A stretch of 64,000 bases of DNA. Origin: a virus. Its lineage: Duplodnaviria; Heunggongvirae; Uroviricota; Caudoviricetes. The stretch's first letter is position 1; each line of letters starts with the position of its first letter. Positions 9,511-45,584 of this stretch are shown here, piece after piece. The DNA is taken from the IMG/VR virus record IMGVR_UViG_3300032291_002057, positions 14,305 through 78,304 of that record, one strand, 5' to 3'. Below the pieces are notes generated by a model. The model saw only the letters and a list, made by a program, of their open reading frames with translations. It made no database searches and had not been told where the DNA came from. The position numbers and the translations under genes are program-made.

Positions 9511-10364
9511 TGAAGAAAGTTTTAATTACAGGTTGTTCAGGCTACATTGGCAGTCATCTAAGTAAGATGCTAATGGATACATTACGATATGAAGTTCATG
9601 GATTAGATATACGTGAGCCCCAGTATCCAATGCATAGATTTTATCGGCAAGATATCAATAGATTATTTACCATTGATGAAGAATTTGATTGTGTGATTCA
9701 TTTGGCTGCACTAGTTCGTGTAGGTGAAAGTGAACAGCAACCAATCAGTTATTACATAACTAACTTGAATGGCACAATGAATATAGTAAACAAGATTAAA
9801 ACTAAAAACTTTATCTTTGCTAGCACAGGTGCCGCACAAGACTGTGAATCAACATATGGTATTAGTAAACGTGCGGCAGAAGATGTTGTTAAAGAATTTT
9901 GTACAATCCATCGACCAACACCATATACAATCTTTAGATTTTATAATGTTATCGGAAGCACCGTCGTGGCTCCCACTAACCCCGATGGATTAATGTACAA
10001 TTTAATGAAGGCACGTGATACTGGTGAATTTACTATTTTTGGTAATGATTATGCTACACGTGATGGTACTTGTGTCCGTGACTATGTACATGTCATGGAG
10101 ATATGTGACGCACTAAAACAAGCAATTGAAAAACCTAGCAATCAGATAGAATGTCTTGGGCATGGTGTAGGACATACTGTGGGTGAAATAGTTGATCTAT
10201 TCAGAAAAGTAAACAATATACCTAATATTGATTTGTTAACTAAAATAGGTCCAAGAAGAAAGGGTGACCTTGAAACGAGCGTACTCGCCAATGTATCACC
10301 CTATATGCGTAATCTCTATACTATAGAAGATTTGCTTAATGTTTCAACAATAGTGTCGAAATAA
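9510..10364 (+). CDS. NAD-dependent sugar epimerase/dehydratase (SDR family)
   Basis: N-terminal Rossmann motif VLITGCSGYIGSHL; catalytic Y-x3-K (YGISKRAAE); ~284 aa, typical of UDP-sugar 4-epimerase-like enzymes. Confidence 0.7.
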   Translation: MKKVLITGCSGYIGSHLSKMLMDTLRYEVHGLDIREPQYPMHRFYRQDINRLFTIDEEFDCVIHLAALVRVGESEQQPISYYITNLNGTMNIVNKIKTKNFIFASTGAAQDCESTYGISKRAAEDVVKEFCTIHRPTPYTIFRFYNVIGSTVVAPTNPDGLMYNLMKARDTGEFTIFGNDYATRDGTCVRDYVHVMEICDALKQAIEKPSNQIECLGHGVGHTVGEIVDLFRKVNNIPNIDLLTKIGPRRKGDLETSVLANVSPYMRNLYTIEDLLNVSTIVSK

Positions 10365-13402: not shown

Positions 13403-13431
13403 TTGACTTTATTGCGTAGGTGTGCTACACT
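13403..13431 (+). promoter_or_regulatory. sigma70-like promoter (TTGACT-17-TACACT) upstream of uvdE
   Basis: Hexamers with 17-nt spacing in the divergent intergenic region. Confidence 0.4.
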
Positions 13432-13460
13432 ATATCTATTATTTATCACTTTGGGCTTTT

Positions 13461-14477
13461 ATGTACACAAATCAGTTAGTCAAGCGTATTGGTTTTGCTT
13501 GCAAATGGGCAGAACTTAATCACAAAGGTGAGATTGTTTCAACTGAAGGACTTAATACAGGCGGTACTACTTATGCTTGGGCAAAGCGTAATAGTCGTAG
13601 TGTAGTAGAAGAAAAGATTATGGATGTTGCTAAACGTAACATCATCAATACACATGCATTGGTTAAAAAAGTTGCCTCACTAGAACCTGAACTACGCATG
13701 TTACGGTTAACCAGCGATATGTTTAGTTTTTATACAATGGATGAATATAAAGACTTTTGGAAAAGTAGTGATGTACAAAACAGTTTAGAACGTTGGATGG
13801 CACCAATTGGTGAAACTGCACGTGCCAATGATGTTCGCCTCAGCTTTCACCCTGACCAATTTGTAGTTTTAGCAAGTGATCGTCCTGAGGTAGTAAATAA
13901 GAGTATAGAGGAGTTTGAATATCATGCAGATATGGCCCGTTGGATGGGGTACGGTAAACAATTTCAAGACATTAAAATCAATGTCCACATCTCGGGTCGA
14001 GCCGGTCCAGAAGGTATCAGACAAGCCTATAAAAGACTCTCGCCAGAAGCAAGAAACGCACTTACAATCGAAAACGAGGAAATGACATATGACTTACACA
14101 CAGTATTACAAATTGCAGATTTGGTTCCAATTGTTATGGACATCCATCATCACTGGATCAACTGCGGCGAATACATTGAACCTACTGATGACCGTGTTAA
14201 AAAGGTTATTGATAGTTGGCGCGGTATTCGCCCTACTATGCACTACAGTGTATCTAGGGAAGATTGCCTTATTGAACACCCCAGTGACCAACGTCCCTCC
14301 CGTGATGCGTTGATGGAAAGTGGCCACAATAGGCAAAAATTACGTGCCCATAGTGATTACTTTTGGAATGATGCAGTGAACGATTGGGCATTGACATTTC
14401 GTGATAACTTTGATATCATGTGCGAGAGTAAAGGCAAAAACTTAGCTAGCTTTAAATTACTTGAATATGCCAACTGA
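13461..14477 (+). CDS. uvdE: UV damage endonuclease
   Basis: Colinear similarity to UvsE/Uve1: SFHPDQFVVLAS, INVHISG, TIENEEMTY, DIHHHW, HSDYF. ATG at 13461 chosen over GTG 13422, which lies inside the promoter. Confidence 0.85.
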   Translation: MYTNQLVKRIGFACKWAELNHKGEIVSTEGLNTGGTTYAWAKRNSRSVVEEKIMDVAKRNIINTHALVKKVASLEPELRMLRLTSDMFSFYTMDEYKDFWKSSDVQNSLERWMAPIGETARANDVRLSFHPDQFVVLASDRPEVVNKSIEEFEYHADMARWMGYGKQFQDIKINVHISGRAGPEGIRQAYKRLSPEARNALTIENEEMTYDLHTVLQIADLVPIVMDIHHHWINCGEYIEPTDDRVKKVIDSWRGIRPTMHYSVSREDCLIEHPSDQRPSRDALMESGHNRQKLRAHSDYFWNDAVNDWALTFRDNFDIMCESKGKNLASFKLLEYAN

Positions 14478-17134: not shown

Positions 17135-17163
17135 TTGACATTAACTAAATATACGTATATAAT
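17135..17163 (+). promoter_or_regulatory. consensus sigma70 promoter (TTGACA-17-TATAAT) abutting the ATG at 17170 (leaderless transcript likely)
   Basis: Perfect hexamers; the -10 ends 6 nt before the start codon. Confidence 0.55.
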
Positions 17164-17169
17164 ACACAC

Positions 17170-18183
17170 ATGAAATACGCACTCATTGACACCGCAAATA
17201 CATTCTTCCGTGCTAGGCACGTTGCATCACGCAATAGTACCTTAGATGAAAAGATCGGCATGGCTCTACACTTGACACTTGCATCAGTCAATCAGGCTGT
17301 GCGTAAATATGGAATTGATCACGTAGTCTTTTGTTTAGAAGGTAGGTCGTTTCGCAAAGACTTGTATGCACCTTACAAAAAGAATCGTGTGGTCGATGCA
17401 CAATCAGTTACAGAGGCTGAAGCTGAGGAATCTAAAATGTTTTGGGAAACGTATGAAAAATTCACTACGTACATCAAGGAAAAGACCAATGTGTCTGTAC
17501 TAAGGCATGAACGTGCTGAGGCTGATGACATGATTGCCCGATTCATTCACTTACATCCAAATGACAATCACTGGATAATTTCAACAGATACGGATTATGA
17601 TCAACTCATAACTGAAAAAGTGGTACGCTACAATGGAGTAGGCAATGAACTTGTAACATTAAAGGGCTACTTTAAAGAAAATGGTAAGCCTGTTGTTGAC
17701 AAGAAAACTAAAGAGCCCAAACTATTAGAGGACCCTCAATACTTGCTATTCAAAAAATGTATGCGCGGTGATGCAAGCGATAATGTGTTTAGTGCATATC
17801 CCGGTGTACGTGAAAAAGGTAGCAAAAACAAAGTAGGACTTATGGAAGCATATGCTGACCGTAATAAACAGGGCTTTGATTGGAACAATCTGATGTTGCA
17901 ACGCTGGGTGGATCATGATAGTGTTGAGCATAGGGTACGTGAGGATTATGAACGTAACCGTAAATTAATTGATTTGACTGCACAGCCCCAAGATATCAAG
18001 GATGCAGTTGACGCACGTATCAAAGAGAGTGTCCGTATTGATACCATTCCACAAGTTGGAATTCATTTTATGAAATTTTGCGGAAAATATGAACTTACTA
18101 AAATTTCTGAACAAGCTGAGACTTATGCTAAGTGGCTTAATAGCCCATACAAAGGCACGTTACATGAATCACATACTGCATAG
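17170..18183 (+). CDS. 5'-3' exonuclease / flap endonuclease (RNase H-like, T4 rnh / T5 D15 type)
   Basis: N-terminal LIDTANTFFRA, acidic clusters (ADDMIARF, STDTDYDQL) and a PolI-type 5' nuclease layout. Confidence 0.8.
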   Translation: MKYALIDTANTFFRARHVASRNSTLDEKIGMALHLTLASVNQAVRKYGIDHVVFCLEGRSFRKDLYAPYKKNRVVDAQSVTEAEAEESKMFWETYEKFTTYIKEKTNVSVLRHERAEADDMIARFIHLHPNDNHWIISTDTDYDQLITEKVVRYNGVGNELVTLKGYFKENGKPVVDKKTKEPKLLEDPQYLLFKKCMRGDASDNVFSAYPGVREKGSKNKVGLMEAYADRNKQGFDWNNLMLQRWVDHDSVEHRVREDYERNRKLIDLTAQPQDIKDAVDARIKESVRIDTIPQVGIHFMKFCGKYELTKISEQAETYAKWLNSPYKGTLHESHTA

Positions 18184-19246: not shown

Positions 19247-19604
19247 TGCAGTATTATTTTTGTTGGTTCTACTTTTTATTAAACATTGGTATATTGATTT
19301 TGTCAATCAAACTAATGAAGAAGTGGCAAGCAAAGGTATCTATGGCGATGGTGCTGGTCTGGGGCATTCAATTAAACATGGCTTTGCCACACTGTTATGT
19401 ATTCTTTCAGTAACAGGATCACAATTCTTTGGATATGCAATGATTCTAGCATTTATTGACTTTGTTGTGCATTACCATGTTGATTGGCTTAAAATGAATT
19501 ATGGCAATCGTGATATCACGACCCCTGCTTTCTGGAATCATTTAGGGCTAGATCAACTTGCACATTATTTGACTTATTTGTTTATTGCAAGGATGATTGT
19601 ATGA
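19239..19604 (+). CDS. hypothetical membrane protein (3-4 predicted TM helices)
   Basis: Hydrophobic segments LFLLVLLFI, LCILSVTGSQFFGYAMILAFIDFVV. Confidence 0.4.
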   Translation: MIDAVLFLLVLLFIKHWYIDFVNQTNEEVASKGIYGDGAGLGHSIKHGFATLLCILSVTGSQFFGYAMILAFIDFVVHYHVDWLKMNYGNRDITTPAFWNHLGLDQLAHYLTYLFIARMIV

Positions 19605-19804
19605 ACGAACGAATTAAAGAACTAATGCAACAAGCAGGCACTGATATTAGTGGCAAATGGATGGGCGTGGACCATGCTGAAAAATTTGCCGAGTTGCTTG
19701 TACGGGAATGTGCCGACGTTCTACTTGAGCAGAAGAAAGAACCTTTCCCTCTTGATCCTGATTTTGCCGCAAGTTTAATCAAAGAACATTTTGAAGTTGA
19801 CTGA
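19601..19804 (+). CDS. MNERIKEL-family small protein (paralog 1)
   Basis: MNERIKELMQQ...FAELLVRECADVL...EHFEVD; 5' nucleotide sequence ATGAACGAACGAATTAAAGAACT is shared with the other copies. Confidence 0.5.
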   Translation: MNERIKELMQQAGTDISGKWMGVDHAEKFAELLVRECADVLLEQKKEPFPLDPDFAASLIKEHFEVD

Positions 19805-24805: not shown

Positions 24806-25915
24806 ATGGCTATAAATAATGGTATGAATGTACTAATACTAACCCCTGACCGTGTAGGAAGCACCCTACTACAACGCTTAATAACCATATATATGAATGC
24901 ACATACATATGATAAACCTGTTATAAATCTACATGAACTTACCAATGGGTTAGAATCATATTACAGCGATATTTATAATAAAGAGATATTAGGGAAACCC
25001 AAATCAAAAGCATGGGGTTATTATCAAACATTAGAAGAAGTGACAACCCTATTAAGAAACGCCGATCACTACAAGACATGTCGTTTGGCTAGATATCATA
25101 TTGTTAGTAGATTCGATTCATTACCAGACCAGGTGCAATTTTATAATTATATCAATGAAAACTTTTATGTTATATCAGCACGAAGAAACAATCTATTTGA
25201 ACATGCTATCAGTTGGGGAATTCATGGAGTATCAAACAAGTTAAATGTATTTACTCACCAAGAAAAAATAGACACATTCTATAACATTTATAAAAATGGT
25301 GTGACTATTCACCCGACTAAATTAACAAAGCATCTAAATGATTATAAAGAATATATAAATTGGTGTGATACTTATTTCAATGTTTCTTCATATTTTGATT
25401 ACGAAAAAGACTTAAAAAATATTGAAAAATATATATTAGGACTGGATATCTTTCCAAATCAAGAACGTAAAACATGGGAAGACATATTTGATATCCCCTG
25501 GACTGATTGGAATAAATGTCATAAGTTAATTAGTGACTTTGGCGGGTCCGATATTAAATTACTAGAAAACAATACTGTTACTGATTTAACTCCAACTGTA
25601 TTGCAAACAAGTTTAAGTTTAGTTGACCAAAATTATTTATTACAGCACGGGCCAAAATATATGAATGCACACAACGGAATAGCGCAACTTGTTTTCCAAG
25701 GCGCTTTAGTTACTAACGTTCCTATTAAGTTACAAACACTAGCGGAAAAAAGAAAGATAATTAAAAACTTTGATGAATGTGTTGATGTTTATAATAAATG
25801 GGTAGATGATAATGGAATGGGTATAAAATATACACATGATGAATTAAAACTACTTTCTAATAACGAAGTAAAAGAATGGTACAAAGAAGTACCGGAAACT
25901 TTACTACTAAAATAA
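24806..25915 (+). CDS. hypothetical protein, possible sulfotransferase-like fold
   Basis: N-terminal LILTPDRVGSTLLQRLI (PAPS 5'-PSB-like) and VISARRNNLFEHAISW (Stf0-type RR-x-x-x-x-x-A-VS-like). Assignment tentative. Confidence 0.35.
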   Translation: MAINNGMNVLILTPDRVGSTLLQRLITIYMNAHTYDKPVINLHELTNGLESYYSDIYNKEILGKPKSKAWGYYQTLEEVTTLLRNADHYKTCRLARYHIVSRFDSLPDQVQFYNYINENFYVISARRNNLFEHAISWGIHGVSNKLNVFTHQEKIDTFYNIYKNGVTIHPTKLTKHLNDYKEYINWCDTYFNVSSYFDYEKDLKNIEKYILGLDIFPNQERKTWEDIFDIPWTDWNKCHKLISDFGGSDIKLLENNTVTDLTPTVLQTSLSLVDQNYLLQHGPKYMNAHNGIAQLVFQGALVTNVPIKLQTLAEKRKIIKNFDECVDVYNKWVDDNGMGIKYTHDELKLLSNNEVKEWYKEVPETLLLK

Positions 25916-25929: not shown

Positions 25930-25958
25930 TTGACAATAAATCCAAAGTATGTGATACT
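25930..25958 (+). promoter_or_regulatory. degenerate copy of the early promoter (TTGACAATAAATCC...GATACT) abutting the lipoprotein gene start
   Basis: Shares the TTGACAATAAATC core with the six cassette promoters. Confidence 0.35.
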
Positions 25959-27200
25959 TTGGACGTGAATAAATTAACCCTATTATCTCTTTTATTTCTT
26001 GCAGGTTGCGGCGGAGGTGGCGGATCACAACCTCCTGCGACAACTGGTATAAACACTACAGCAGTAGATACATCATGCAGTGTTAGTTCCAGTATTGCAC
26101 CTGCAAGTTACACAGGCGTCTATCAGATTCCTGTACCAACTCAAAGATTAGATACAAATATTCAACGTGCAGTGGGCTTAAAGGACTATTACTCAGGTAG
26201 CACATGTTCGTATACTGTCACACTAGATAGATTACAAAAATTAGGTGTTGATAGAGTTTGGGTTTACAACTATGGAGTATGGGATGACTTTAGTAAACCC
26301 GTTTGGTCAATTGCAGATAATAATTGGCAAATCCCACAAGCATCATTTGCACATTTGTTATCAGAAGCAAATAAAAGAAACATCAAAGTGTTTGTGGCAT
26401 TACAGTTTACTGCTATTGATTCGAAGGGTAATATGTTGCCGTTTGGACAGAATATATCACCTACATTATTACAATCAATGCTTGACAGTCACAAAAAAGC
26501 ATTAACTAGTATAACTAACAAATATGGAAATAGTTTAGGCGGTGTCAGTTTAGATTGGAATGCATTTCATATTATAAATATGCAGGATCATACTGATAGA
26601 TGGGCTACCAATATGGTAGCACTAGCAAATGAAATTCGTAAAAACTTCTCAGGTGTCATTACATATGGACAACACGGTATGCCAAGTTATGATAGTAGAA
26701 TTTACAATGTTATTGACGAAATTCATATTAGCCTTGTACCAAGACTTACCTTAACAGAAAATAATAATATATCGGTCGCTTTATTAAAAACAAAATTTAC
26801 TGAGTTGATAAACCAATCGTTTACACAATTACAAAATACAACTAAACCAGTAACTTGGGAACTTAGTATTCAAAGCAGAGACAAGTATTTCTTAGAAGGT
26901 TGGGTAGAAGATGGATTCTGTATTGTGTCGGGAGGTAATGGCTCACCAACTGATTACAACAATCCATTATGCTCTCAAAAAAATCATGTAACTGATTTTA
27001 GTATCCAAGCTATGGGCGTAGAAGCGGCATTACAGGCTATTGCATCGCAAAACAAGTTTATAACTAAATCAGTTGATTTTCACACAAGCTATTGGCACAC
27101 TGATACCGTTACTCCTGGCAATGAAGGATTCCCTAACTTCTCACAATCTATTCGTGGTAAGCCAGCTGAAAGTATTATTAAATACTGGTTCACTAAATAA
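25959..27200 (+). CDS. lipoprotein (lipobox LAGC followed by a Gly-rich linker), possible carbohydrate-active exported enzyme
   Basis: LTLLSLLFLAGCGGGGGSQPP lipoprotein signal; 413 aa. Start codon uncertain (TTG 25959 or GTG 25965). Confidence 0.55.
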   Translation: MDVNKLTLLSLLFLAGCGGGGGSQPPATTGINTTAVDTSCSVSSSIAPASYTGVYQIPVPTQRLDTNIQRAVGLKDYYSGSTCSYTVTLDRLQKLGVDRVWVYNYGVWDDFSKPVWSIADNNWQIPQASFAHLLSEANKRNIKVFVALQFTAIDSKGNMLPFGQNISPTLLQSMLDSHKKALTSITNKYGNSLGGVSLDWNAFHIINMQDHTDRWATNMVALANEIRKNFSGVITYGQHGMPSYDSRIYNVIDEIHISLVPRLTLTENNNISVALLKTKFTELINQSFTQLQNTTKPVTWELSIQSRDKYFLEGWVEDGFCIVSGGNGSPTDYNNPLCSQKNHVTDFSIQAMGVEAALQAIASQNKFITKSVDFHTSYWHTDTVTPGNEGFPNFSQSIRGKPAESIIKYWFTK

Positions 27201-27204
27201 TAAT

Positions 27205-27831
27205 ATGGCACAATATTCAATCATAGGCATCAGTGGGACAGTTGACAATTTTATTGTTGATACTTTTACAAAGTTGGGATTGAGTGTGGAATATAATATT
27301 GATCGCCCGCTAGATGATTCACAAACTGCTGTTATTATTTCATATGGTCACGGTGGTTATGCCTGGGTTATGACTTCACACGCATTAAGAACGGTATTTA
27401 CATTTACACCTGAACTGTTTGATTCTTGGAAAAAGCACTGGGTAGGTGATGAACAAATTTTATGTAGTGAAGATATTACACATGAACGTTGGGCAAATCA
27501 TGTTCTAAAAAGTTATAATCACATCGGAGTCCACGCCCCGCTCAACGGACTACATGTTGAAGTTGAAAAAAGAATAGGTAATGACAAGTGCCCCAGACAT
27601 GAAATCAAACTTGAGGATATAGTCACCAATCCTGAAAAAGTATTGATACAAATTAGCATGATTGTCAACAAAGATATTCCTATAAATGTCAGAGAATTCT
27701 TCCTTACAGAACAAAAAAAGAAGAAGGAAATCATGGCTCCTTGGATGAATGCTATAGTATTACAAAATGAAAACTCACGAAACTTAAAAGTAAAACATTT
27801 TGATTACACTATTGATTTATTGATTGATTGA
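27205..27831 (+). CDS. hypothetical protein
   Basis: Internal ATG (MAQYSIIG...) of track ORF 27073-27831, chosen to avoid overlap with the lipoprotein gene. Confidence 0.4.
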   Translation: MAQYSIIGISGTVDNFIVDTFTKLGLSVEYNIDRPLDDSQTAVIISYGHGGYAWVMTSHALRTVFTFTPELFDSWKKHWVGDEQILCSEDITHERWANHVLKSYNHIGVHAPLNGLHVEVEKRIGNDKCPRHEIKLEDIVTNPEKVLIQISMIVNKDIPINVREFFLTEQKKKKEIMAPWMNAIVLQNENSRNLKVKHFDYTIDLLID

Positions 27832-27853
27832 ACAATTGTCCAAACAAAAATGG

Positions 27854-27882
27854 TTGACAATAAATCGTTTTGGACTTATACT
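27854..27882 (+). promoter_or_regulatory. early promoter copy A (TTGACAATAAATCGTTTTGGACTTATACT)
   Basis: TTGACA-17-TATACT; the downstream leader is near-identical to copy E at 43446. Confidence 0.6.
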
Positions 27883-27915
27883 ATAGTCTGTTCAGTTGAT
27901 TAAAGGAGTTTTCAA

Positions 27916-28116
27916 ATGATTAACGAATCAAAAGTTTTGGAAGTTGTCAAATCTGTAACCGAGACCAATGCTTATTTTTTCAACGGTACGTTGTTTTTGG
28001 AAACTATTGATAGCAAAATTGCTACTGACGTTTTCTTTGAAATTTGCGAAAAGGTTACAGCCGCGCTTGCTTTTGGTAAGGTTGGTAATGAAACTTCTTA
28101 CGATTTTTTCGGTTGA
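27916..28116 (+). CDS. hypothetical small protein (cassette gene)
   Basis: AAAGGAG RBS; its stop TGA lies inside the -35 TTGACA of the next promoter. Confidence 0.5.
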   Translation: MINESKVLEVVKSVTETNAYFFNGTLFLETIDSKIATDVFFEICEKVTAALAFGKVGNETSYDFFG

Positions 28117-28141
28117 CAATAAATCGTTTTGGGCATATAAT
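28113..28141 (+). promoter_or_regulatory. early promoter copy B (TTGACAATAAATCGTTTTGGGCATATAAT)
   Basis: Perfect TTGACA-17-TATAAT. Confidence 0.65.
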
Positions 28142-28166
28142 ACTTGTATTGATTGATTAAAGGAGC

Positions 28167-28505
28167 TTGCAAATGATTAACGTTAAAACACCCCTGAGTA
28201 CTAATGGTTCTGGTTATTGGTCTGATGTCGCTAAGACAGTACTTGTGACTGGATTAGAACTTTCGTATGTAAATGATGAGAATGACTTTGGTGAACTACG
28301 TGTTCATTTTGATACAAATACTTGGGACGTTGACGCTGACGGTCTTATCTATACTGACAAACAATTCATTAATGATTTAAAAGTATTACTTAATCGCATG
28401 GAATTAGATACCGATGTTTCTTATTCTGAACAAGGTATGCAAGGTGATACTTTTGTTAGTTTGGATGTTGGTCCTGAATTCATTAAATCTTTCAAAATGG
28501 CTTGA
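28167..28505 (+). CDS. hypothetical small protein (cassette gene)
   Basis: AAAGGAG RBS; its stop TGA is embedded in the next TTGACA. Confidence 0.5.
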   Translation: MQMINVKTPLSTNGSGYWSDVAKTVLVTGLELSYVNDENDFGELRVHFDTNTWDVDADGLIYTDKQFINDLKVLLNRMELDTDVSYSEQGMQGDTFVSLDVGPEFIKSFKMA

Positions 28506-28530
28506 CAATAAATCGTTTCGGGTATATAAT
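28502..28530 (+). promoter_or_regulatory. early promoter copy C (TTGACAATAAATCGTTTCGGGTATATAAT)
   Basis: TTGACA-17-TATAAT; leader near-identical to copy F at 43727. Confidence 0.65.
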
Positions 28531-28562
28531 AGAATCTTAAACAGTCGAAACAAGGAGTTAAA

Positions 28563-28835
28563 ATGTCTGCACTAGTTGAATACACATTGGAACTGTACAA
28601 ATCTGACAAACGTGTTAAGGGCGGTAAGCGTCTGGTCACTAAAGAAGAATTTGCCCCTGTCACTAGAGCCTACATCAAGGCTGTGATTGAAGCTAAAACT
28701 AAGTTGGGTTTTATTGTAGAACCCCATGAGACTTTTGTTACCAAACGCAACATGATGACTGGTAAGACTTACCAGGAACGTTACGATACTCCTTATTTCT
28801 GTTCTCCTTCTAGCGAATCTTACTGGAGCAACTAA
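28563..28835 (+). CDS. hypothetical small protein (cassette gene)
   Basis: CAAGGAG RBS; 90 aa. Confidence 0.5.
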   Translation: MSALVEYTLELYKSDKRVKGGKRLVTKEEFAPVTRAYIKAVIEAKTKLGFIVEPHETFVTKRNMMTGKTYQERYDTPYFCSPSSESYWSN

Positions 28836-29485
28836 TGCCTAAGTATCAGAAACCTGTTCTTAATTTTAATGCCGATGATGTTTGGGCCGCGGCATGTCAG
28901 GCCCAACGAGTCAATGGTGCGTATGTTAAACTGAGTGTGTCGTCCGAATCTGATCCTAGTATGGATCGAAAATCTAATCGCCAACTGGTAGAATTATTGT
29001 TGGCAGACACTACACAAATTACTGACGAGGATCGTGAGCAGGCTAAAACGGTTCGCAAGTATTATCAAGCACTTACCTTTAAAATCCTTAAGGGAATTAA
29101 ATTGAGTGAGTTTGATAACACTGCAATGCTTATTGCCAATCGTGATATCATTGATAGTAATTATGATGTGGCAGTTATGGCAAGTTTGCCAAGTTGCTAT
29201 GAGCGTAGTATCAAGCGTGATAGTGTTGATCAACGTATTACTTTTGCTAACGGCGGCTATGTAGGTTGTCCCGGTGACAAAGTAACTCACCAAGTAGAAG
29301 TACTCAAGTGTTTTTATTCTCAGAAATGGGATACTCACTATGTAACAGGTATTACTGAGGCAGAACAAGTATTTTTCTTTGCTTATAAAAATCCCGTTGA
29401 TCTTGGTAGTACAATTAAAATTCAAGGCACTGTCAAAGCACATCGGGATAACTCAACTCAACTTAATCGTGTAAAGGTGATATAA
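28835..29485 (+). CDS. hypothetical protein
   Basis: 216-aa ORF with TAATG overlap. Confidence 0.5.
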   Translation: MPKYQKPVLNFNADDVWAAACQAQRVNGAYVKLSVSSESDPSMDRKSNRQLVELLLADTTQITDEDREQAKTVRKYYQALTFKILKGIKLSEFDNTAMLIANRDIIDSNYDVAVMASLPSCYERSIKRDSVDQRITFANGGYVGCPGDKVTHQVEVLKCFYSQKWDTHYVTGITEAEQVFFFAYKNPVDLGSTIKIQGTVKAHRDNSTQLNRVKVI

Positions 29486-29625
29486 TGTCTAAATTGTTTA
29501 TTGGTTTTATTCTTGGCGTAGTCGTAAGTTCAGTAGGCTTTAGTGGTATTGCACGTATGCTTGACAACGGGGTAAATAAAGTGAAAGAAGTTTCACAGGA
29601 GCAAATCAAGTAATGAAAGAAATTA

Positions 29626-29853
29626 ATGCATCCGGTATTTAAAGATATTATTATAATTATTATTGCAGTTGGTACTATACTTTTTTGGCTAGAACCGGAT
29701 GAAGAAGAATATGAAGAGGATCCTGATACTGTTACCATAGAATATCGTTGTTCTCTTATTGAAGAATACAACAATGTTCCACAGGCAGTAAAAGAAGAAT
29801 GTTTAAATCGTAATCGTTTTAATAATTCTACAGAAAACAAAGATACAATTTAA
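29626..29853 (+). CDS. small membrane protein with acidic C-terminal domain
   Basis: TM segment IIIIIIAVGTILFWL followed by an EEEYEEDPD stretch. Confidence 0.35.
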   Translation: MHPVFKDIIIIIIAVGTILFWLEPDEEEYEEDPDTVTIEYRCSLIEEYNNVPQAVKEECLNRNRFNNSTENKDTI

Positions 29854-29863
29854 AGGAAAAAAA

Positions 29864-31213
29864 ATGTCAGCAAGTTGGATTCGTAAGTTAAACGAGAGTG
29901 ATAGTCGCCTTCATAAAGAAGATGTAATTTTGCAGGCGCTTGAGGCAAGTGTCCTAGGTAGCAGTAACGCTATCAATTTCTTGTCATTTACTAAAGCATG
30001 TTACAATCCTTATGTGACGTTTGGTGTTCGTCAAGTGCCAGACACAGTTGGTATTACTGATGCAGAAAATCCTTGGGAAGAGTTTAACGAGTTGATGCTA
30101 CAACTTAGTCAACGTAGATTGACCGGACATGCCGCACGTGATGCTATTCAAAGTATGGCTGAACGATTTGATAGTGATGAGTGGAATACATTCTTAGCAC
30201 CTGTATTGCGTAGAGACTTACGTGCAGGTATTAGTGATAAGACAATTAACAAAATTTGTAAAAAAACAGATTATGAAATTCCTGTATTTGGTTGTCAACT
30301 AGCAACCAATAGTGAAGGTCGCCCTGAGATGAAAGGCATCAAACGTCTTGAACCTAAACTTGACGGTGTGCGTATGTTGTTGATGGTTATCCCAGGTGCA
30401 AGTGAAGGTGTAACTACTATTTGTTTTAGTCGTAATGGAAAACAGTTTGATAACTTTGGTCACATTGAAGAACAAGTACGTGACAATTGGGTTAAGATTG
30501 TTCGTGCATGTAAAGGGGTAGATCAAGGTCGTAGTTTGATTGATGGTTTTGTACTTGATGGTGAAGTGATTGGTAATACATTCCAAGAACTAATGCGCCA
30601 AGCACGCCGCAAAACTGATGTCCAAGCTGATGACAGTGTGTTTAATATTTTTGATATTATTCCATTAAGTGATTTCCGTGAAGGACATTGGAATGCTCAA
30701 CTACGTAAACGTATTGCACTACTTGATGCAATGCGACCTGTTGTTGATACGATGCCCAACGTAGAACTATTACCTCACATCATGGTTGACTTAGATACAG
30801 CCGCAGGTCGTGATCAACTTGAACGTTATGCCAAAGACAACGTGAATGCAGGCTTTGAAGGCATTATGATTAAAGAGTTAGAAGCCCCATATGTCTGTAA
30901 ACGTAGTACAGACTGGATGAAATGGAAACCTACGATTACTGTAGACTTGGAGGTCATCGGTGTTGAAGAAGGTACAGGACGAAATATGGGAAGAGTTGGA
31001 GCTCTTGTTTGCGCCGGAATTGATGACGGTAAAGAGATCCATGTCAATGTTGGTAGTGGCTTTAGCGATACTGATAGAGATAATCTTTGGAGTGACCGCA
31101 ATTTGGTTATTGGTCGAACTTGTGAAATCTTGTGTGATGTAATTACACAAAATCGTGATGGTACATACAGTTTGCGATTCCCTCGCTTTGTTAGATTTAG
31201 GGATGATAAATGA
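29864..31213 (+). CDS. ATP-dependent DNA ligase
   Basis: Adenylation motif I KLDGVRM (K-x-DG-x-R); 449 aa; strong RBS AAAGGAAAAAAA-ATG. Confidence 0.85.
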   Translation: MSASWIRKLNESDSRLHKEDVILQALEASVLGSSNAINFLSFTKACYNPYVTFGVRQVPDTVGITDAENPWEEFNELMLQLSQRRLTGHAARDAIQSMAERFDSDEWNTFLAPVLRRDLRAGISDKTINKICKKTDYEIPVFGCQLATNSEGRPEMKGIKRLEPKLDGVRMLLMVIPGASEGVTTICFSRNGKQFDNFGHIEEQVRDNWVKIVRACKGVDQGRSLIDGFVLDGEVIGNTFQELMRQARRKTDVQADDSVFNIFDIIPLSDFREGHWNAQLRKRIALLDAMRPVVDTMPNVELLPHIMVDLDTAAGRDQLERYAKDNVNAGFEGIMIKELEAPYVCKRSTDWMKWKPTITVDLEVIGVEEGTGRNMGRVGALVCAGIDDGKEIHVNVGSGFSDTDRDNLWSDRNLVIGRTCEILCDVITQNRDGTYSLRFPRFVRFRDDK

Positions 31214-31422
31214 ACGAACGAATTAAAGAACTTTACGACCAGGCTAACATCCGTTATTCAGTATATGAAATATTGAAACCACGAGATGAACGAAAAAATA
31301 TTCCGGATATATTCGCCGAGTTGATTGTGCGGGAATGTGTCCAGGCCGTAAAAAATGTCGGTGGCTACAACGAAGACTATCATATGAATGCTATCAAAAA
31401 ATATTTCGGAGTTGAAGAATGA
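31210..31422 (+). CDS. MNERIKEL-family small protein (paralog 2)
   Basis: MNERIKELYDQ...FAELIVRECVQAV...KYFGVEE; ATGA overlap with ligase. Confidence 0.5.
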   Translation: MNERIKELYDQANIRYSVYEILKPRDERKNIPDIFAELIVRECVQAVKNVGGYNEDYHMNAIKKYFGVEE

Positions 31423-31604
31423 TTAAACTTTGGTTAGCATTTATTATTATCGCTGTTCTTATTCACTTTGGTATTACTGCTTTGAGAAATATGAATGGTT
31501 TGGAACAATTAGCCTTGACAAAAAGCATAGGATATAGTATACTTGTATCAATGGCAGCAGTAATGTTGATCACAGTATTTGTAATTTTATTTTAAAGGAA
31601 AAAC

Positions 31605-36974: not shown

Positions 36975-38180
36975 ATGACCACTGATTCTAAACTAAACCA
37001 TTGCTCTTTTTGTAATACACATAAAGATAAAGTTAAAAAGCTAATTGTCGGAGATGATGTTGCAATTTGTAGTGACTGTATTGATTTATGCACCCAGCTT
37101 ATAGTTGATGATTCGTCAATTCCAGAAACCGAAACCAAACCAGAAGAAATAAAACACGACCCTTCATCTATTAAAGAATATTTAGATTTGCATGTGATTG
37201 GGCAAGACAGTGCAAAAGCAGTATTAAGCGTTGCTATTGCTAATCACTATAAACGTATTACTCATCCTCCTAAAGATTTAGAAATACAAAAAGGTAATGT
37301 ATTGATAATTGGACCCACTGGATCAGGTAAAACATTACTTGCTAAAACTGTCGCCAAATATCTCAAAGTGCCCTTTGTAGTAGCTGATGCTACGAGTTTG
37401 ACCGAAGCTGGATATGTGGGTGATGACGTTGAAAGTATGATTAGTATGCTAGTAAACGCCGCGGGCGGCGATGCTAAATTAGCTGAACGTGGTATTGTAT
37501 TTGTTGATGAAATTGACAAGATTGCACGTAAAAGTGAAGGATCTAGTATTACCCGTGATGTATCAGGTGAAGGTGTACAGCAAGCACTATTGAAATTAGT
37601 TGAAGGAACAGTATGTCGCATTCCAGCAGGTGGCGGAAGAAAACACCCCGGTGGTGACATGTTAGAAGTTAACACCAAAAATATTTTATTCATTGCAGGA
37701 GGAGCCTTTGTGGGATTGAAAGAAATTATCAACAATCGCACAAACGGAACAAGTATGGGATTTGGTGCTAAGATTAAAGATCAGAATACAGAGGGTGACT
37801 TAACATTAGTTACGCCTGATGACTTAACACGTTTTGGAATGATTCCTGAATTTATTGGACGATTTACAACCACAGTTAGTATTGGTGAACTAAGTAGAGA
37901 AGACCTTAAAAAGGTATTGACAGAAGTAAAAAATAATTACATCCAACAATATCAATATTTGTTGAGTATTGACGATATTGAGTTAACTTTTACAGACGAT
38001 GCACTTGACCAAATTGTAGATAATTGTCTTAAACTAAAAACAGGGGCACGTGGATTGCATACTGAAATTGAAAAAGTGTTGATGCCACACATGTTCAATA
38101 CTCGCAAATACCGTGAAAACAACATTAAAAAGATAAATATCAATCAGGAGCAAGTATTAAAACCAAAAGCAATTTTATGA
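36975..38180 (+). CDS. clpX: ATP-dependent Clp protease ATP-binding subunit ClpX
   Basis: N-terminal zinc-binding domain CSFC...CSDC; Walker A GPTGSGKTLLAKT; near full-length colinear match to ClpX including the IGF-loop region. Confidence 0.9.
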   Translation: MTTDSKLNHCSFCNTHKDKVKKLIVGDDVAICSDCIDLCTQLIVDDSSIPETETKPEEIKHDPSSIKEYLDLHVIGQDSAKAVLSVAIANHYKRITHPPKDLEIQKGNVLIIGPTGSGKTLLAKTVAKYLKVPFVVADATSLTEAGYVGDDVESMISMLVNAAGGDAKLAERGIVFVDEIDKIARKSEGSSITRDVSGEGVQQALLKLVEGTVCRIPAGGGRKHPGGDMLEVNTKNILFIAGGAFVGLKEIINNRTNGTSMGFGAKIKDQNTEGDLTLVTPDDLTRFGMIPEFIGRFTTTVSIGELSREDLKKVLTEVKNNYIQQYQYLLSIDDIELTFTDDALDQIVDNCLKLKTGARGLHTEIEKVLMPHMFNTRKYRENNIKKININQEQVLKPKAIL

Positions 38181-39016: not shown

Positions 39017-39328
39017 ATGTCAAAAACATCAACTGAAACAAAAATTAGAATTAAACCCAATCTTGCTATCAAAGAACCTCCGTTGTTCAAGATTATCTAC
39101 ATGAATGATAATGTTACTAGTATGGAATTTGTCGTAGGTACGTTGATCGATTATTTTAATTATAATGAAGATACTGCTACTTCTATCACTCATAATATTC
39201 ATGAGGAAGGAAGTGCAATTGTTGCAGTTTTACCCTATGAAATTGCAGAACAAAAAGGCATGGAAGTAACACTTGAAGCACGTAGTCAAGGATTCCCTTT
39301 GCTAGTTAAAGTGGAATCTGAAGCCTAA
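39017..39328 (+). CDS. clpS: ATP-dependent Clp protease adaptor ClpS
   Basis: PPLFKIIYMNDNVTSMEFVVGTL matches the ClpS core (VILLNDDYTPMEFV). Confidence 0.8.
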   Translation: MSKTSTETKIRIKPNLAIKEPPLFKIIYMNDNVTSMEFVVGTLIDYFNYNEDTATSITHNIHEEGSAIVAVLPYEIAEQKGMEVTLEARSQGFPLLVKVESEA

Positions 39329-40026: not shown

Positions 40027-40347
40027 TTACTTTGCCACTGTCATTCTAGGCTTTCTCGGAGCCTTTGGCTTAGCAGGTGCTTTAGTTTTAGGGGCAGCCG
40101 GAGCTTTTGGCTTAGCAGGCGCTTTAGCTTTTGGTGTTTCAACTGGAGTTGCAGTTTCAACTGGAGTTGCAGTTTCAACTGGAGTTGCAGTTTCAACTTT
40201 CACTGGTTCTGCAACAGGTACAACAGGGGTTTCTATCTTATATGGTACCTCTGTTGCTGTGTGAGGTGCTACACCTAACGGTAACGTTGATGGGGTAGAT
40301 TCTCTGGGTTTGTCCATACCGAATAGATTTTTTAAAAACTTAATCAT
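40027..40347 (-). CDS. repeat protein: TPVETA x4 plus KAPAKPKAP lysine-rich tail (histone H1-like low complexity)
   Basis: Encoded by 18-bp tandem DNA repeats; RBS AGGAGAAAAT on minus strand. Confidence 0.5.
   Translation of the reverse strand: MIKFLKNLFGMDKPRESTPSTLPLGVAPHTATEVPYKIETPVVPVAEPVKVETATPVETATPVETATPVETPKAKAPAKPKAPAAPKTKAPAKPKAPRKPRMTVAK
40057..40198. repeat. tandem repeats (18-bp unit CAACTGGAGTTGCAGTTT x3.5 and an adjacent ~36-bp unit x2) inside the gene
   Basis: Direct reading of 40057-40198. Confidence 0.8.
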
Positions 40348-42555: not shown

Positions 42556-43146
42556 ATGAATTTAGTCCCAATCGTTTTAGAACAAACAGCAAAAGGTGAG
42601 CGTAGTTATGATATCTATTCACGCCTCTTGCGTGACCGTGTAATCTTACTTGAAGGTGAAGTACACGACCAAATGGCAAATCTTATCGTTGCCCAATTAC
42701 TTTACTTAGAAAGTGAAGGCGATAAAGATATCTCAATGTATATCAATAGCCCGGGTGGTAGTGTAACTGCTGGTATGGCTATCTATGATACAATGCAATT
42801 TATCAAACCTGAAGTTATGACAATCGTTATGGGTCAGGCTTGTTCAATGGGAAGTCTATTAGCACAAGCAGGTGCACCAAACAAACGTTTTATTCTTCCA
42901 AATGCACGACACATGATCCATCAGCCTAGTGGTGGCGCACGTGGTCAAGCAACTGATATGCTAATTCAAGTAGAAGAAATTCTTGAAATGAAACGTAACT
43001 TAACCAATATATATGTTAAACACAATTCAAAAGAAAAAACTTTTGAACAACTAACACAAGATATGGAACGTGATAATTTTATGAGTGCTGATCAAGCCGT
43101 AAATTATGGCCTTGCAGACAAAATACTTACATCACGAAATAGTTAA
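42556..43146 (+). CDS. clpP: ATP-dependent Clp protease proteolytic subunit ClpP
   Basis: Colinear match to ClpP: catalytic Ser in GQACSMGS, His in MIHQP, Asp in DNFMSAD; [21 protein letters not shown]. Confidence 0.9.
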
Positions 43147-43160: not shown

Positions 43161-43184
43161 AGCCCCGTTTTTGGGGCTTTTTTA
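43161..43184 (+). terminator. rho-independent terminator after clpP
   Basis: AGCCCC-GTTTTT-GGGGCT followed by TTTTTT. Confidence 0.7.
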
Positions 43185-43187
43185 CGG

Positions 43188-43216
43188 TTGACAATAAAAT
43201 ATTTTGGGCATATAAT
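43188..43216 (+). promoter_or_regulatory. early promoter copy D (TTGACAATAAAATATTTTGGGCATATAAT), leaderless
   Basis: TTGACA-17-TATAAT; ATG 43223 lies 6 nt after the -10. Confidence 0.6.
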
Positions 43217-43222: not shown

Positions 43223-43441
43223 ATGAAATCAAGAATTTATATCACTCAAAAAGATAACGACAAATACTTTAAGCAAAAATTACCTACATTCCGTAATGGT
43301 TTTTGCTATATTGAACGTGTTGTAACTTTTGAACAGGACCCAACCAATTCGTTTGACGAGGGTGAGTGGGGTTACATCACTGTAGGTAAACAAAAAGTAT
43401 TCGTTTTTGGTGACAAAAATTCCTTCGAAATTTGGAAGTAA
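43223..43441 (+). CDS. hypothetical small protein (cassette gene)
   Basis: 72-aa ORF directly downstream of promoter D. Confidence 0.45.
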   Translation: MKSRIYITQKDNDKYFKQKLPTFRNGFCYIERVVTFEQDPTNSFDEGEWGYITVGKQKVFVFGDKNSFEIWK

Positions 43442-43445
43442 ATGG

Positions 43446-43474
43446 TTGACAACAAATCATTTTGGGTTTATACT
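43446..43474 (+). promoter_or_regulatory. early promoter copy E (TTGACAACAAATCATTTTGGGTTTATACT)
   Basis: TTGACA-17-TATACT; leader TATAGTCTGTTCAGTTGATTAAAGGAG is identical to copy A. Confidence 0.6.
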
Positions 43475-43505
43475 ATAGTCTGTTCAGTTGATTAAAGGAG
43501 CATTT

Positions 43506-43730
43506 ATGTCTTTCACACAGTACATGATGGATTTTTATGGTCCCCAAAGTGATCTTTACCCCGAGTTGAATTTCAACGAAACACAAATCGCCATCGCTAC
43601 AGGCATCTACAAAATGCGCCTGACTACCGAAGGTAGGGAATTCTATGGGGACACTATGGATCGTGAAATGGTTCGTGATATCATCCTTGAAGCCCGTGAA
43701 AAAGTTTTGCCAGAGTTTGCAAAGGCTTGA
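43506..43730 (+). CDS. hypothetical small protein (cassette gene)
   Basis: ATG 8 nt after AAAGGAG (as in copy A); the track ORF start at 43488 would read through the RBS; stop TGA inside the next TTGACA. Confidence 0.45.
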   Translation: MSFTQYMMDFYGPQSDLYPELNFNETQIAIATGIYKMRLTTEGREFYGDTMDREMVRDIILEAREKVLPEFAKA

Positions 43731-43755
43731 CAATAAATCATTTTGGGTATATAAT
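43727..43755 (+). promoter_or_regulatory. early promoter copy F (TTGACAATAAATCATTTTGGGTATATAAT)
   Basis: Perfect TTGACA-17-TATAAT; leader AGAATCTTAAACAGTC...GGAGTTAAAA shared with copy C. Confidence 0.65.
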
Positions 43756-43789
43756 AGAATCTTAAACAGTCAACAAACAGGAGTTAAAA

Positions 43790-44245
43790 ATGGGTACACG
43801 TTCACTTATTGCAGTTGTTCATGGTGACAATTACAAAACAGTTTATTGTCATTGGGATGGCTACCTGTCGCACAATGGTCGCATTTTGCAAGAACACTAC
43901 AATAGTTCAAAAGCCAATCATCTTGTTGCATTGGGCAATATCTCTAGTCTTGGAACTGAGATTGGCGAAAAGCATCCCTTCAGTCAATTTGATACTGACA
44001 TGCCAGCCAAAGAGTTTGAAGAAAAGTATGGCAACATGACTACATTCTATGGTCGTGACCGTGAAGAAGAAGGTCAAGAGTTTATCACGCACACCAGCAA
44101 AGAATCATTGATTGAACATTTCAACGAGTCTTGGTGTGAGTTTGCATACATTATGAAAGACAGCACATGGTATGTTATGTATCAAGGTGATACTGAATTG
44201 CGTGTGTTGTCAGAAGAATTGGCTAAAGTAACTGAGGAAGTTTAA
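43790..44245 (+). CDS. hypothetical protein (cassette gene)
   Basis: 151-aa ORF after the shared leader. Confidence 0.5.
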   Translation: MGTRSLIAVVHGDNYKTVYCHWDGYLSHNGRILQEHYNSSKANHLVALGNISSLGTEIGEKHPFSQFDTDMPAKEFEEKYGNMTTFYGRDREEEGQEFITHTSKESLIEHFNESWCEFAYIMKDSTWYVMYQGDTELRVLSEELAKVTEEV

Positions 44246-44574
44246 TGGAAGCAGTAGTAGAAACAACAGTATGGAGTGATAGCAATCTTGCCAATCACAC
44301 TTACCTTCTTGATGGTACTAAAATGATTGCGTACATTAAAGTTGGTTCTACTACTCCATTCTATTTTAAGAACCCGATCACCATCGACAAACGTGGTCGC
44401 AAGTTCCAAGCATTGAAAGTTAATCCTTTCAAAAAGATAAAAGAAAAATCTACTATAATTAAAGTATCTGGTAGCAAGGGTAATATATATAGTATTGATA
44501 CAGTAGATAAAACATGCACATGCCCTGGATACACATTTCGCGGTACTTGTAAACATATTACGGAGTTGGTATGA
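44245..44574 (+). CDS. SWIM zinc-finger protein
   Basis: C-terminal CTCPGYTFRGTCKHI (C-x-C-x(n)-C-x-H). Confidence 0.5.
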   Translation: MEAVVETTVWSDSNLANHTYLLDGTKMIAYIKVGSTTPFYFKNPITIDKRGRKFQALKVNPFKKIKEKSTIIKVSGSKGNIYSIDTVDKTCTCPGYTFRGTCKHITELV

Positions 44575-44810
44575 ACGAACAAACAATTGATCTTTACAAA
44601 CAAGCAACAGAGTTTGCCTATGATTCTATCGGAAAAGAACATTCCAATACCGCATACTTTCAAGGTACTATTGCAGGAAAGTTTGCCGAGTTGATGTTGA
44701 CAGAATTTAAAAGTGTATTACTTAACATGATGAATAAAGGTCAAGGTGAGTTTGATACTTTGGACCAAGCACTTACAGAAATTAACGAACATTTCGGAGT
44801 TGAAGAATGA
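44571..44810 (+). CDS. MNE-family small protein (paralog 3)
   Basis: MNEQTIDLYKQ...FAELMLTEF...EHFGVEE; starts ATGAACGAAC. Confidence 0.5.
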   Translation: MNEQTIDLYKQATEFAYDSIGKEHSNTAYFQGTIAGKFAELMLTEFKSVLLNMMNKGQGEFDTLDQALTEINEHFGVEE

Positions 44811-45178
44811 CCAATGAAATCACCGTAGAAATGCTGGACCGCAAGATTGCATGGTGTGAGCAAAAGCTAGCGGACGCCAAGGCAGCAGCCATCCAGCACA
44901 TGCAGGATTTTTACTTTGAAAAGACCCGGGCCAGTGTGACCGAGTCTTGGCCTGAAACATTCTCATCACAGGAACTTGCTGATACTTTGGGTATAGAGCA
45001 AGTGCGGTATAGAATCTACTACAGCCGAGATAATCTCACTTGCCGACTGTTTGTGTTTCGCCCTTACTGTACACCAACTGAAATGGAAACAATGTTGGGT
45101 ATGGGGTTTGTGTTTGCACAAGATGGTGATACAGAAAATATCCCTGATAAACCAGTAGAAGAGGAAGTTGAAGAATGA
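44807..45178 (+). CDS. hypothetical acidic protein embedded in the MNE array
   Basis: 123 aa, ends VEEEVEE; ATGA overlaps on both sides. Confidence 0.45.
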   Translation: MTNEITVEMLDRKIAWCEQKLADAKAAAIQHMQDFYFEKTRASVTESWPETFSSQELADTLGIEQVRYRIYYSRDNLTCRLFVFRPYCTPTEMETMLGMGFVFAQDGDTENIPDKPVEEEVEE

Positions 45179-45351
45179 ACGAACGAATGTTTGAACTATT
45201 AGCGCAAGCCCGCAATCAACCACTTGATGTGGTCAAGGCTGCACCATTTGGATCAGCCATGCTTACCCCTGCACAATTGGAAACATACACCAAATTGGTT
45301 ATTGAAGAATGTGCTAAAATAACCAAACAACATTTTGGAGTTGAAGAATGA
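45175..45351 (+). CDS. MNE-family small protein (paralog 4, 58 aa, not in the ORF track)
   Basis: MNERMFELLAQ...LVIEECAKITKQHFGVEE; ATGA overlaps. Confidence 0.45.
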   Translation: MNERMFELLAQARNQPLDVVKAAPFGSAMLTPAQLETYTKLVIEECAKITKQHFGVEE

Positions 45352-45584
45352 ACGAACGAATTAAACAACTTGAACTTCAGGCTGCTGACGGCACTGTCGA
45401 TCCTAATGGACCATTTACAGCGGAAGAATTCAACAACTTTACAAAAAAGTTCGCCGAGTTGATTGTTAAGGAAATGTGTAGTGTGTTAGACAAGGCACAA
45501 TGGGACAAAGGTGAAGATTGGATATGTGCTGACGGCACACGAATCATCCCACAGATTAAAGAACATTTCGGAGTTGAAGAATGA
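45348..45584 (+). CDS. MNERIKEL-family small protein (paralog 5)
   Basis: MNERIKQLELQ...FAELIVKEMCSV...EHFGVEE. Confidence 0.5.
   Translation: MNERIKQLELQAADGTVDPNGPFTAEEFNNFTKKFAELIVKEMCSVLDKAQWDKGEDWICADGTRIIPQIKEHFGVEE

Follow-up and report, generated by a model that had tools for sequence, protein, structure and literature searches.

The 64-kb stretch of viral DNA considered here ("the window": 64,000 nucleotides, positions 14,305 to 78,304 of IMG/VR record IMGVR_UViG_3300032291_002057, Caudoviricetes) contains two arrays of small genes, each gene standing behind a copy of one and the same promoter-like repeat. The repeats of the first array occupy 27854-27882 (promoter A, TTGACA-17-TATACT), 28113-28141 (promoter B, TTGACA-17-TATAAT, a match at 12 of 12 consensus positions) and 28502-28530 (promoter C, TTGACA-17-TATAAT), and precede gene A (27916-28116; 66 aa), gene B (28173-28505; 110 aa) and gene C (28563-28835; 90 aa), respectively. 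Those of the second array are promoter B' (43188-43216; TTGACA-17-TATAAT), promoter A' (43446-43505 together with its type A leader; TTGACAACAAATCA...TATACT) and promoter C' (43727-43789 together with its type C leader; TTGACA-17-TATAAT), preceding gene B' (43223-43441; 72 aa; apparently leaderless), gene A' (43506-43730; 74 aa; phrog_7799) and gene C' (43790-44245; 151 aa; phrog_1987). The order of the cassettes is A-B-C in one array and B'-A'-C' in the other, and the copies follow one another at 259 and 389 bp in the first and at 258 and 281 bp in the second. All of these features are on the plus strand; every copy is on the coding strand, co-oriented with its neighbouring genes, and gene bodies throughout the 64 kb are free of copies.

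The six copies match the σ70 consensus at 11 to 12 of its 12 positions with a spacer of exactly 17 nt, where none would be expected. Measured against the 29-mer at 28113, the copy at 27854 has three mismatches and that at 28502 has two; the 17-nt spacers of promoters A, B and C all start with ATAAATCG. Five sites in the window lie within three mismatches of this 29-mer (100 dinucleotide shuffles yield none); the sixth copy, at 43446, has five mismatches and was picked up by a repeat finder. A preliminary description of this DNA had reported three near-identical promoters placed head-to-tail at 27854, 28113 and 28502, and their coordinates and 17-nt geometry hold; it had also referred to six copies, and those at 43188, 43446 and 43727 make up the remaining three. 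There is, in addition, a diverged seventh copy at 25930-25964 (plus strand; TTGACAATAAATCC), with a 17-nt spacer and a TG-extended GATACT. Other consensus promoters of the window, at 17135, 24430 and 59143, each have an unrelated spacer.

Every one of the six copies except that at 43188 is followed by a leader of 31 to 34 nt with a Shine-Dalgarno (SD) site and then ATG, and the leaders are of only a few types: type A (ATAGTCTGTTCAGTTGATTAAAGGAG...; 27883-27915, SD at 27902-27908), type B (ACTTGTATTGATTGATTAAAGGAG...; 28142-28172, SD at 28159-28165, with stops in all three frames ahead of it) and type C (AGAATCTTAAACAGTC...AAGGAG; 28531-28562), all on the plus strand. The type A promoter-leaders at 27854 and 43446 (43440-43500) are 93% identical over 61 nt and the type C promoter-leaders at 28502 and 43727 are 94% identical over 51 nt; the type B leader at 28113 has a truncated relative at 43188. 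The AAAGGAG that had been attributed to a conserved leader is thus too narrow a description, since C-type leaders have CAAGGAG or ACAGGAG and 43188 has no leader at all, while SD leaders as such are found at the other copies.

The six cassette genes belong to six different, unrelated families. Judged from their sequences they are real genes: the ratio of nonsynonymous to synonymous substitution rates (dN/dS) against relatives is 0.19-0.20 for gene B and 0.09-0.29 for gene C, and synonymous divergence (dS) in cassette genes reaches values above 2 while the adjacent 29-mer changes at no more than three positions. Their products had been said to lack recognisable homologues, which is wrong: gene A has homologues in relatives (a family of 15), gene B has 2792 homologue clusters in a metagenome protein database, none of them annotated, and A', C' and D (the gene that follows C) match PHROG families without assigned function. 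What does stand is the lack of an annotated function. Scans of the small proteins with Pfam, PHROGs and PADLOC gave no function beyond the SWIM finger of the gene at 44245-44574, and sequence searches of the PDB with C' and D gave nothing meaningful. The AlphaFold (AF2) model of gene B (pLDDT 92.9, an alpha/beta fold) found no fold match in the PDB (best E 0.15) and otherwise only uncharacterised viral proteins. Gene C leads on, with no promoter between, into the conserved gene D (28835-29485), which is followed by a ligase gene (29864-31213); gene C' is the conserved anchor of its own region and is followed by the SWIM-finger gene.

The repeat is not a peculiarity of this one genome: it is a family present on more than 100 viral contigs, some of its copies with a stem-loop around the -35, which goes beyond the preliminary description. 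The 21-nt core TTGACAAYAAATCRTTTYGGG was found on at least 119 uncultured viral contigs (IMG/VR). A host or prophage source was sought in 596 Gb of bacterial and archaeal genomes, where two matches amount to the chance level; among 50,697 GenBank phage records, megablast of positions 27000-31500 gave no match and blastn of the promoter-leader gave chance-level matches only. Looked for in published full texts, the motif turned up only in unrelated primer sequences, and nothing relevant was found in the literature on jumbo-phage promoter motifs. Among the matches listed, 113 unique copies have enough flanking sequence for analysis of positions that were no part of the search pattern, namely the -10 hexamer, the downstream open reading frame (ORF) and the SD. 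At exactly 17 bp from the -35, 97 have TATAAT, 10 TACAAT, 3 TATACT and 3 another hexamer; an ORF with an ATG start lies downstream of all 113 (median 90 aa), with an SD in 98 and the ATG 26-35 nt past the -10. Upstream of the -35, 45-70% of copies have A at -5 to -3 and all have a purine at -2, in coding and non-coding context alike; the extended consensus reads AAA-R-N-TTGACAATAAATCRTTTYGGGYA-TATAAT-A. A further 384 consensus-like promoters from the same loci, which lie outside the strict search pattern and are therefore free of its ascertainment, have ATAAAT at spacer positions 1-6 at 71-87% per position and spacers that are T-rich at 10-12 and G-rich at 13-15. This bias, taken together with the unrelated spacers of other promoters in the window, marks the family as a distinct promoter class, and the dominant one of its clade.

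Promoter B' represents a minor variation on the theme. It lacks a leader, and ATG 43223 lies 6 nt past its -10; about 9 of the 113 family copies, 43188 included, have this layout, which implies leaderless mRNAs. The B' homologue in the related locus L047 has an ordinary SD leader, and the two proteins align from residue 1. (Two observations of a similar kind: the consensus promoter at 17135-17172 has the start ATG 17170 of an RNaseH/FEN-like gene 6 nt past its -10, and GTG 25965 of a lipoprotein-like ORF perhaps has the same 6-nt leaderless layout with respect to the diverged copy, at 25930-25967. Another technical note: the notion that leaders always close all three reading frames was dropped; it is true of the A and B leaders of the window, but of only 51 of 100 copies overall, and closure by the leader alone, at 31% as against 14% in shuffles, is a tendency rather than a rule.)

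The most distinctive property of the arrays is the way in which one cassette ends and the next begins. The stop codon of gene A (TGA, 28114-28116) falls within the TTGACA of promoter B (28113-28118), that of gene B (TGA, 28503-28505) within the TTGACA of promoter C (28502-28507), both as had been claimed, and a third case is provided by gene A', whose TGA (43728-43730) falls within the TTGACA at 43727; gene B' has a TAA stop 4 nt ahead of the next -35. Three of four between-promoter genes are too few to be significant in themselves (approximately 0.11 under a null of one frame in three). Across the family, 53 of 113 copies (47%) provide the preceding gene with its stop through the TGA of their -35, and in 35 more the stop lies 4-11 nt upstream. 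ORFs that run into the promoter after at least 40 open codons do so in the TGA frame in 62 of 66 instances, with two in each of the other frames; 52 different C-terminal pentapeptides are involved. One and the same gene family may end ...GCT TGA caataaat or ...ATT TGA caataaat when a promoter comes next, and in TAA, with an SD, where it is joined straight to the next gene without a promoter. The stop-in-the-35 thus reads as a rule of the family and not as an accident. Family genes (related loci and window together) use TAA 799 times, TGA 601 times and TAG 49 times; the TGA stops include 311 that overlap the next start as ATGA and 123 that lie in TTGACA, together 72%, so that most TGA stops are shared with a signal for expression of the next gene.

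Gene maps of related loci allow the arrays to be seen in flux. The same two hyperplastic regions recur in relatives between conserved flanks, filled with zero to nine cassettes. The first of these regions extends from a family-13 gene to gene D and the ligase: it is empty of cassettes in L075 and contains only A in L030 and L086, B-C in L096, B'-93-C in L047 and C-217-A in L048, and in the window three larger genes followed by A-B-C. The second, from ClpP to C' and the SWIM-finger gene, holds one to nine cassettes in relatives. Cassettes also change regions: A' lies near ClpP in the window and in L024 but beside the ligase in L085, L029 and L064; the ClpP region contains B in L073 and C in L069, and the ligase region contains B' in L047.

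Leaders are exchanged as well. The leader of gene C (some 25 nt, from the -10 to the ATG) belongs to type C in the window and to type B in L093/L096 and in L025; on both sides of the swap the window and L093/L096 are identical, through the end of gene B and the promoter on the left and over the initial 36 nt of gene C on the right. A second event is seen in L123 and L124, from two Joint Genome Institute (JGI) samples, which are 93-98% identical to the window and lack exactly one 259-bp unit, cassette A. At their junction, promoter A and the upstream portion of leader A pass, within TTGATTAAAGGAG, a 13-mer that spans the SD and is common to leaders A and B, into the downstream portion of leader B and then gene B; the sample that yielded L124 also has a contig with A, whose protein is 100% identical. 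An identity of 13 nt is probably too short for k-mer assembly at the usual assembler settings to create such a join, and it recurs in two samples; on these grounds the junction is taken as real, a check at the level of reads being pending. A third crossover lies at the 5' edge of the promoter (the region upstream of B, window against L096). That crossovers fall at several positions within the module argues against a fixed-site recombinase. The preliminary reading is supported in part: a compact, modular promoter-leader-gene arrangement is borne out by the spacing, the cassette content, the leader swap and the indel, its remark on homologues is not, and a role in early transcription or host takeover may be surmised from the consensus match and the analogy with T4-type phages.

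What keeps the spacer as it is? Some copies are embedded in secondary structure. A stem-loop (27838-27875, plus strand) encloses the -35 of promoter A between the arms GTCCAAA (27838-27844) and TTTGGAC (27869-27875): the GGAC variant of this promoter's spacer is matched by the upstream arm, and the fold is at -10.1 kcal/mol (z -2.1). The strongest hairpins of the family are those of L007 (-19.1 kcal/mol, z -5.8) and L097 (-15.7 kcal/mol, z -4.3). Arms of at least 7 nt complementary to the 3' part of the spacer accompany 17 of 129 family copies as against 1 of 127 controls, and arm and spacer covary at two variable spacer positions (TACCCAAAAT/ATTTTGGGTA, TGCCC/GGGCA, GTCCC/GGGAC). At 28113, 28502, 43446 and 43727 there is no significant structure (z -0.5 to +0.9). 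Promoter B' is abutted on its upstream side by an intrinsic-terminator hairpin that follows ClpP (AGCCCCGTTTTTGGGGCT and a T run; 43161-43184, plus strand; GC-rich, stem-loop at 43161-43178), and in the diverged copy an 11-bp hairpin covers the spacer and the -10 directly before GTG 25965 (25940-25964, plus strand). Each array of the window has, therefore, a first promoter with a hairpin and internal promoters with coding sequence running into the -35. The stem-loop would account for conservation of the spacer in a minority of copies only; elsewhere, the spacer is possibly kept by a protein that reads it, or by selection for homology that is competent for exchange. (The ATAAAT that follows the -35 was also considered as the core of a T4-type late promoter, TATAAATA, and dropped: it matches at 6 of 8 positions and lacks the first T.)

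Comparison of sequences is enough to show the family of repeats with its fixed geometry, the rule that places stops in the -35, the polymorphism of the cassettes and the crossovers inside modules. The interpretation that we favor, and consider quite likely, is that the repeats are strong promoters for the host's primary σ, that each promoter together with its leader and small gene constitutes a cassette, and that cassettes are shuffled by recombination between the repeats. The host RNA polymerase with its primary σ would read the repeats as strong promoters, and fusion of a promoter to one of a few stereotyped SD leaders would make each small gene a self-contained unit of expression. Since the promoter-leader modules are direct repeats of 30-60 bp, homologous recombination, presumably by the phage's own machinery, could add, remove, reorder and exchange cassettes within a genome, between its two arrays and between co-infecting relatives, by the mechanism that has been proposed for the promoter-early stem-loop (PeSL) cassettes of T4-type phages. 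With no terminator between cassettes inside an array, the upstream ORF lies flush against the next promoter and borrows the TGA of its TTGACA, which places the cassette boundary inside the recombining repeat: any crossover in the repeat would then regenerate the stop of the gene on its left and the promoter of the gene on its right. Compaction and preservation of boundaries may be the reason why the stops are embedded.

A number of considerations weigh against this interpretation, or at least against its simplest form. Use of σ70 and early timing are suggested by the consensus match and by analogy with T4-type phages, and the TGn extension of the -10 is absent from all six window copies (the diverged copy at 25930 alone has it). 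The stem-loop is missing from four of the six window copies and from most copies of the family: the "SL" half of PeSL is usually absent. Promoter function alone fails to explain conservation of the spacer, given the unrelated spacers at 17135, 24430 and 59143; so does local gene conversion or concerted evolution within a locus, for homogenisation of the variable promoter positions within loci is not significant (P 0.23, 0.59, 0.037, 0.25 and 0.46). The genes for recombination are seen in related loci only, not within the window. Finally, the bias toward the TGA frame, with its binomial probability of 4e-25 under a one-in-three null, is overstated by that figure, as the copies share ancestry.

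Spacer conservation is also where an alternative finds its best footing. The 29-mer might be, in the main, a binding site for a protein (a repressor, an activator or a modified polymerase), with ATAAATCRTTTYGGG switching the set of cassettes together. The spacer is conserved far beyond what σ70 needs (this includes the 384-promoter set, with its ATAAAT at 71-87%), other promoters of the window have unrelated spacers, local gene conversion has left no sign, the spacer's center, AAATCATTT, can be read as a 4+1+4 palindrome, and T4 early promoters provide a precedent for an unexplained extra consensus, some of them responding to Alt (PMC2988021). Against these points, no candidate regulator was found, the dyad is of weak symmetry and the CG variant disrupts it, and in some copies pairing and covariation of the 3' half of the spacer with an upstream arm offer another reason for its conservation. 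As the principal function we think such a site doubtful, and it would in any case be compatible with promoter cassettes shuffled by recombination. Might the cassettes instead be moved by a dedicated site-specific system, integron-like, that recognises the promoter or the stem-loop? Extreme conservation of the core on more than 100 contigs and the covarying stem-loop around some -35s would suit it, and a helper protein for PeSLs has been considered by Arbiol et al. (PMC2839356). What makes it very unlikely is the scatter of the crossovers (in the SD 13-mer in L123/L124, on either side of the leader, at the -10 and at the SD/ATG, in L093/L096, and at the 5' edge of the promoter), which is the pattern of homology-driven exchange; most copies are, moreover, without a stem-loop, and no integrase or recombinase was found among the window ORFs scanned, which were a subset of those of an incomplete genome.

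The strong hairpins of L007, L097 and 27838-27875, the GC-rich terminator that abuts 43188 and the 11-bp hairpin at 25940-25964 invite the thought that the main function lies in RNA, the hairpins terminating, attenuating or stabilising upstream transcripts or marking sites of processing, and the likeness to promoters being secondary. This we hold to be extremely unlikely: significant structure is absent from four of the six copies of the window and from most of the family, no U run comes after the hairpins around the -35, and what stays invariant is the two hexamers, their 17-bp spacing and how far off the SD and ATG lie. That the likeness stems from a recent tandem duplication at the locus, or from chance, and has no functional meaning is already refuted. 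The copies do lie head-to-tail, at 259, 389, 258 and 281 bp, but the genes between them are of six unrelated families, more than 100 contigs keep the element although synonymous sites of neighbouring genes are saturated, and shuffled sequence has no matches.

A bolder extension of recombination-shuffled promoter cassettes can be imagined, although we think it unlikely: the promoter-leader module would be the attachment site of a clade-wide exchange in which gene circles of 250-400 bp pass among co-infecting phages, and a dedicated protein would read the spacer or the stem-loop and promote exchange or co-regulate the pool. If that were true, a gene in its circle would be supplied with its stop by the -35 of its own promoter. 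Leaving such speculation aside, the arrays offer an unusually clean natural case of the turnover of small accessory genes in large phages: the unit that is exchanged, the repeats through which this happens and polymorphism for a single unit are visible at nucleotide resolution in environmental populations, and the placement of an upstream stop in the next -35 suggests how far regulatory and coding signals can merge. There are also practical uses. For annotation of uncultured T4-related phages, the 29-nt motif marks cassette boundaries, and TGA stops call for caution, since most of them double as a second signal; how the host recognises promoters and translates could be approached through the conserved spacer and the leaderless subclass. 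The main interest, which we put as moderate, lies in the stop-in-the-35 junction rule and in the nucleotide-level view of cassette turnover in natural populations.

The proteins of this phage point to a large, uncultured, T4-related myovirus; a freshwater host is probable. Related loci encode the T4-type recombination set, a gp32-like single-stranded DNA-binding protein (SSB), UvsX and UvsY, together with rIIA. The window itself has the RNaseH/FEN-like gene, closest to jumbo phages PA5oct and XbC2, the ligase, and auxiliary genes, a CHASE2-cyclase and curlin-repeat genes among them, like those of phages Melnitz and HTVC008M; C' has homologues in cyanophages as well as in jumbo phages, GAP32 and CBB for example. 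A scan for tRNAs found none. Some further observations concern the rest of the window. Ahead of the first array, the ORFs 24806-25915, 25965-27200 and 27205-27831 are absent at the equivalent position in relatives and are thus seen as an insertion; the second is the lipoprotein-like ORF (about 411 aa, lipobox LFLAGC, no family match). ClpX-like and ClpP proteins are encoded among 36975-38180, 39017-39328 and 42556-43146 (Pfam hit and locus annotation), and by eye only, a small ORF in the same set resembles the ClpS adaptor. Small paralogues of 58-79 aa ("MNERIKEL...EHFGVEE"; 19601-19804, 31210-31422, 44571-44810, 45175-45351 and 45348-45584), mostly ATGA-chained to their neighbours, make up the largest family in related loci, with 77 members. 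A minus-strand block (50328-57602) has genes for proteins with curlin repeats and with a FecR domain, and for a CHASE2-adenylate/guanylate cyclase, which shares 40% identity with its counterpart in Methylophilales phage Melnitz and 37% with the one in Pelagibacter phage HTVC008M. An 18-nt tandem repeat (40057-40198) lies in a small minus-strand ORF (40027-40347) of low complexity (ETATPV x4, KAPAKPKAP-type). Auxiliary genes at 1132-2163, 9510-10364 and 13422-14477 encode an IMP dehydrogenase/GMP reductase-like protein, an NAD-dependent sugar epimerase/dehydratase and the UV endonuclease UvdE.

How do these arrays compare with systems already described? The feature is real, conserved and probably functional, and is best seen as a compact variant, in an uncultured clade, of the known PeSL/early-promoter cassette system. 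PeSL cassettes were described in the T4-type phages RB49/phi1, PST/T4 and nt-1/KVP40 (Arbiol et al. 2010, PMC2839356; Comeau et al. 2014, PMC4122927). Each repeat has a σ70-like early promoter preceded by AT-rich DNA, a stem-loop, and an SD with ATG; the repeats concentrate in hyperplastic regions, where ORFans are inserted, deleted and replaced through them; the crossovers of their mini-circles lie between the -10 and the SD or ATG; and subclasses with a stem-loop overlapping the -35 or the -10 have been described (PMC2839356, PMC4122927). A helper protein was raised as a possibility (Arbiol et al. 2010, PMC2839356). The resemblance is extensive: here, too, many near-perfect copies of TTGACA-N17-TATAAT, A-rich upstream and ending in an SD and start codon, cluster before small ORFans in hyperplastic regions of the window and its relatives, the junctions of indels and replacements lie inside the repeats, between the -10 and the SD among other places, some copies have a stem-loop over the -35 or -10, and the background is that of a T4-related phage. 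The differences are in economy. Most copies here (four of six in the window) have neither stem-loop nor terminator. The upstream stop of a PeSL lies in the AT-rich region ahead of the -35, whereas here it is the -35 TGA itself in about half of the copies, with no spacer between stop and promoter at these junctions. The promoter spacer and a few leader types are conserved across an uncultured clade, and there is a leaderless subclass.

The early promoters of T4 itself provide a second comparison. Their consensus extends past the hexamers, and Alt-modified polymerase affects some of them (Hinton 2010, PMC2988021). In common with them, the repeats described here match host σ70 elements strongly, have extra consensus outside the hexamers, and are densely placed before small genes, probably with read-through into the next unit. 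The particulars differ: T4 early promoters have a GTTTAC-like -35 and usually a TGn-extended -10 (PMC2988021), whereas the repeats have a perfect TTGACA and no TGn, and their extended consensus is unrelated to that of T4. Like integron cassettes, the units stand in arrays, one small gene to each, and are gained, lost and reordered as wholes, and the boundary between units falls within a conserved repeat; integron cassettes are promoterless and depend on an attC site, an integrase and a fixed crossover point, whereas each cassette here has its own promoter and crossovers are scattered through the repeat. The junction itself is akin to the ATGA overlaps of coupled phage genes, in which a TGA stop likewise doubles as a signal of the next gene, except that the shared signal here is transcriptional, a -35 hexamer, rather than translational.

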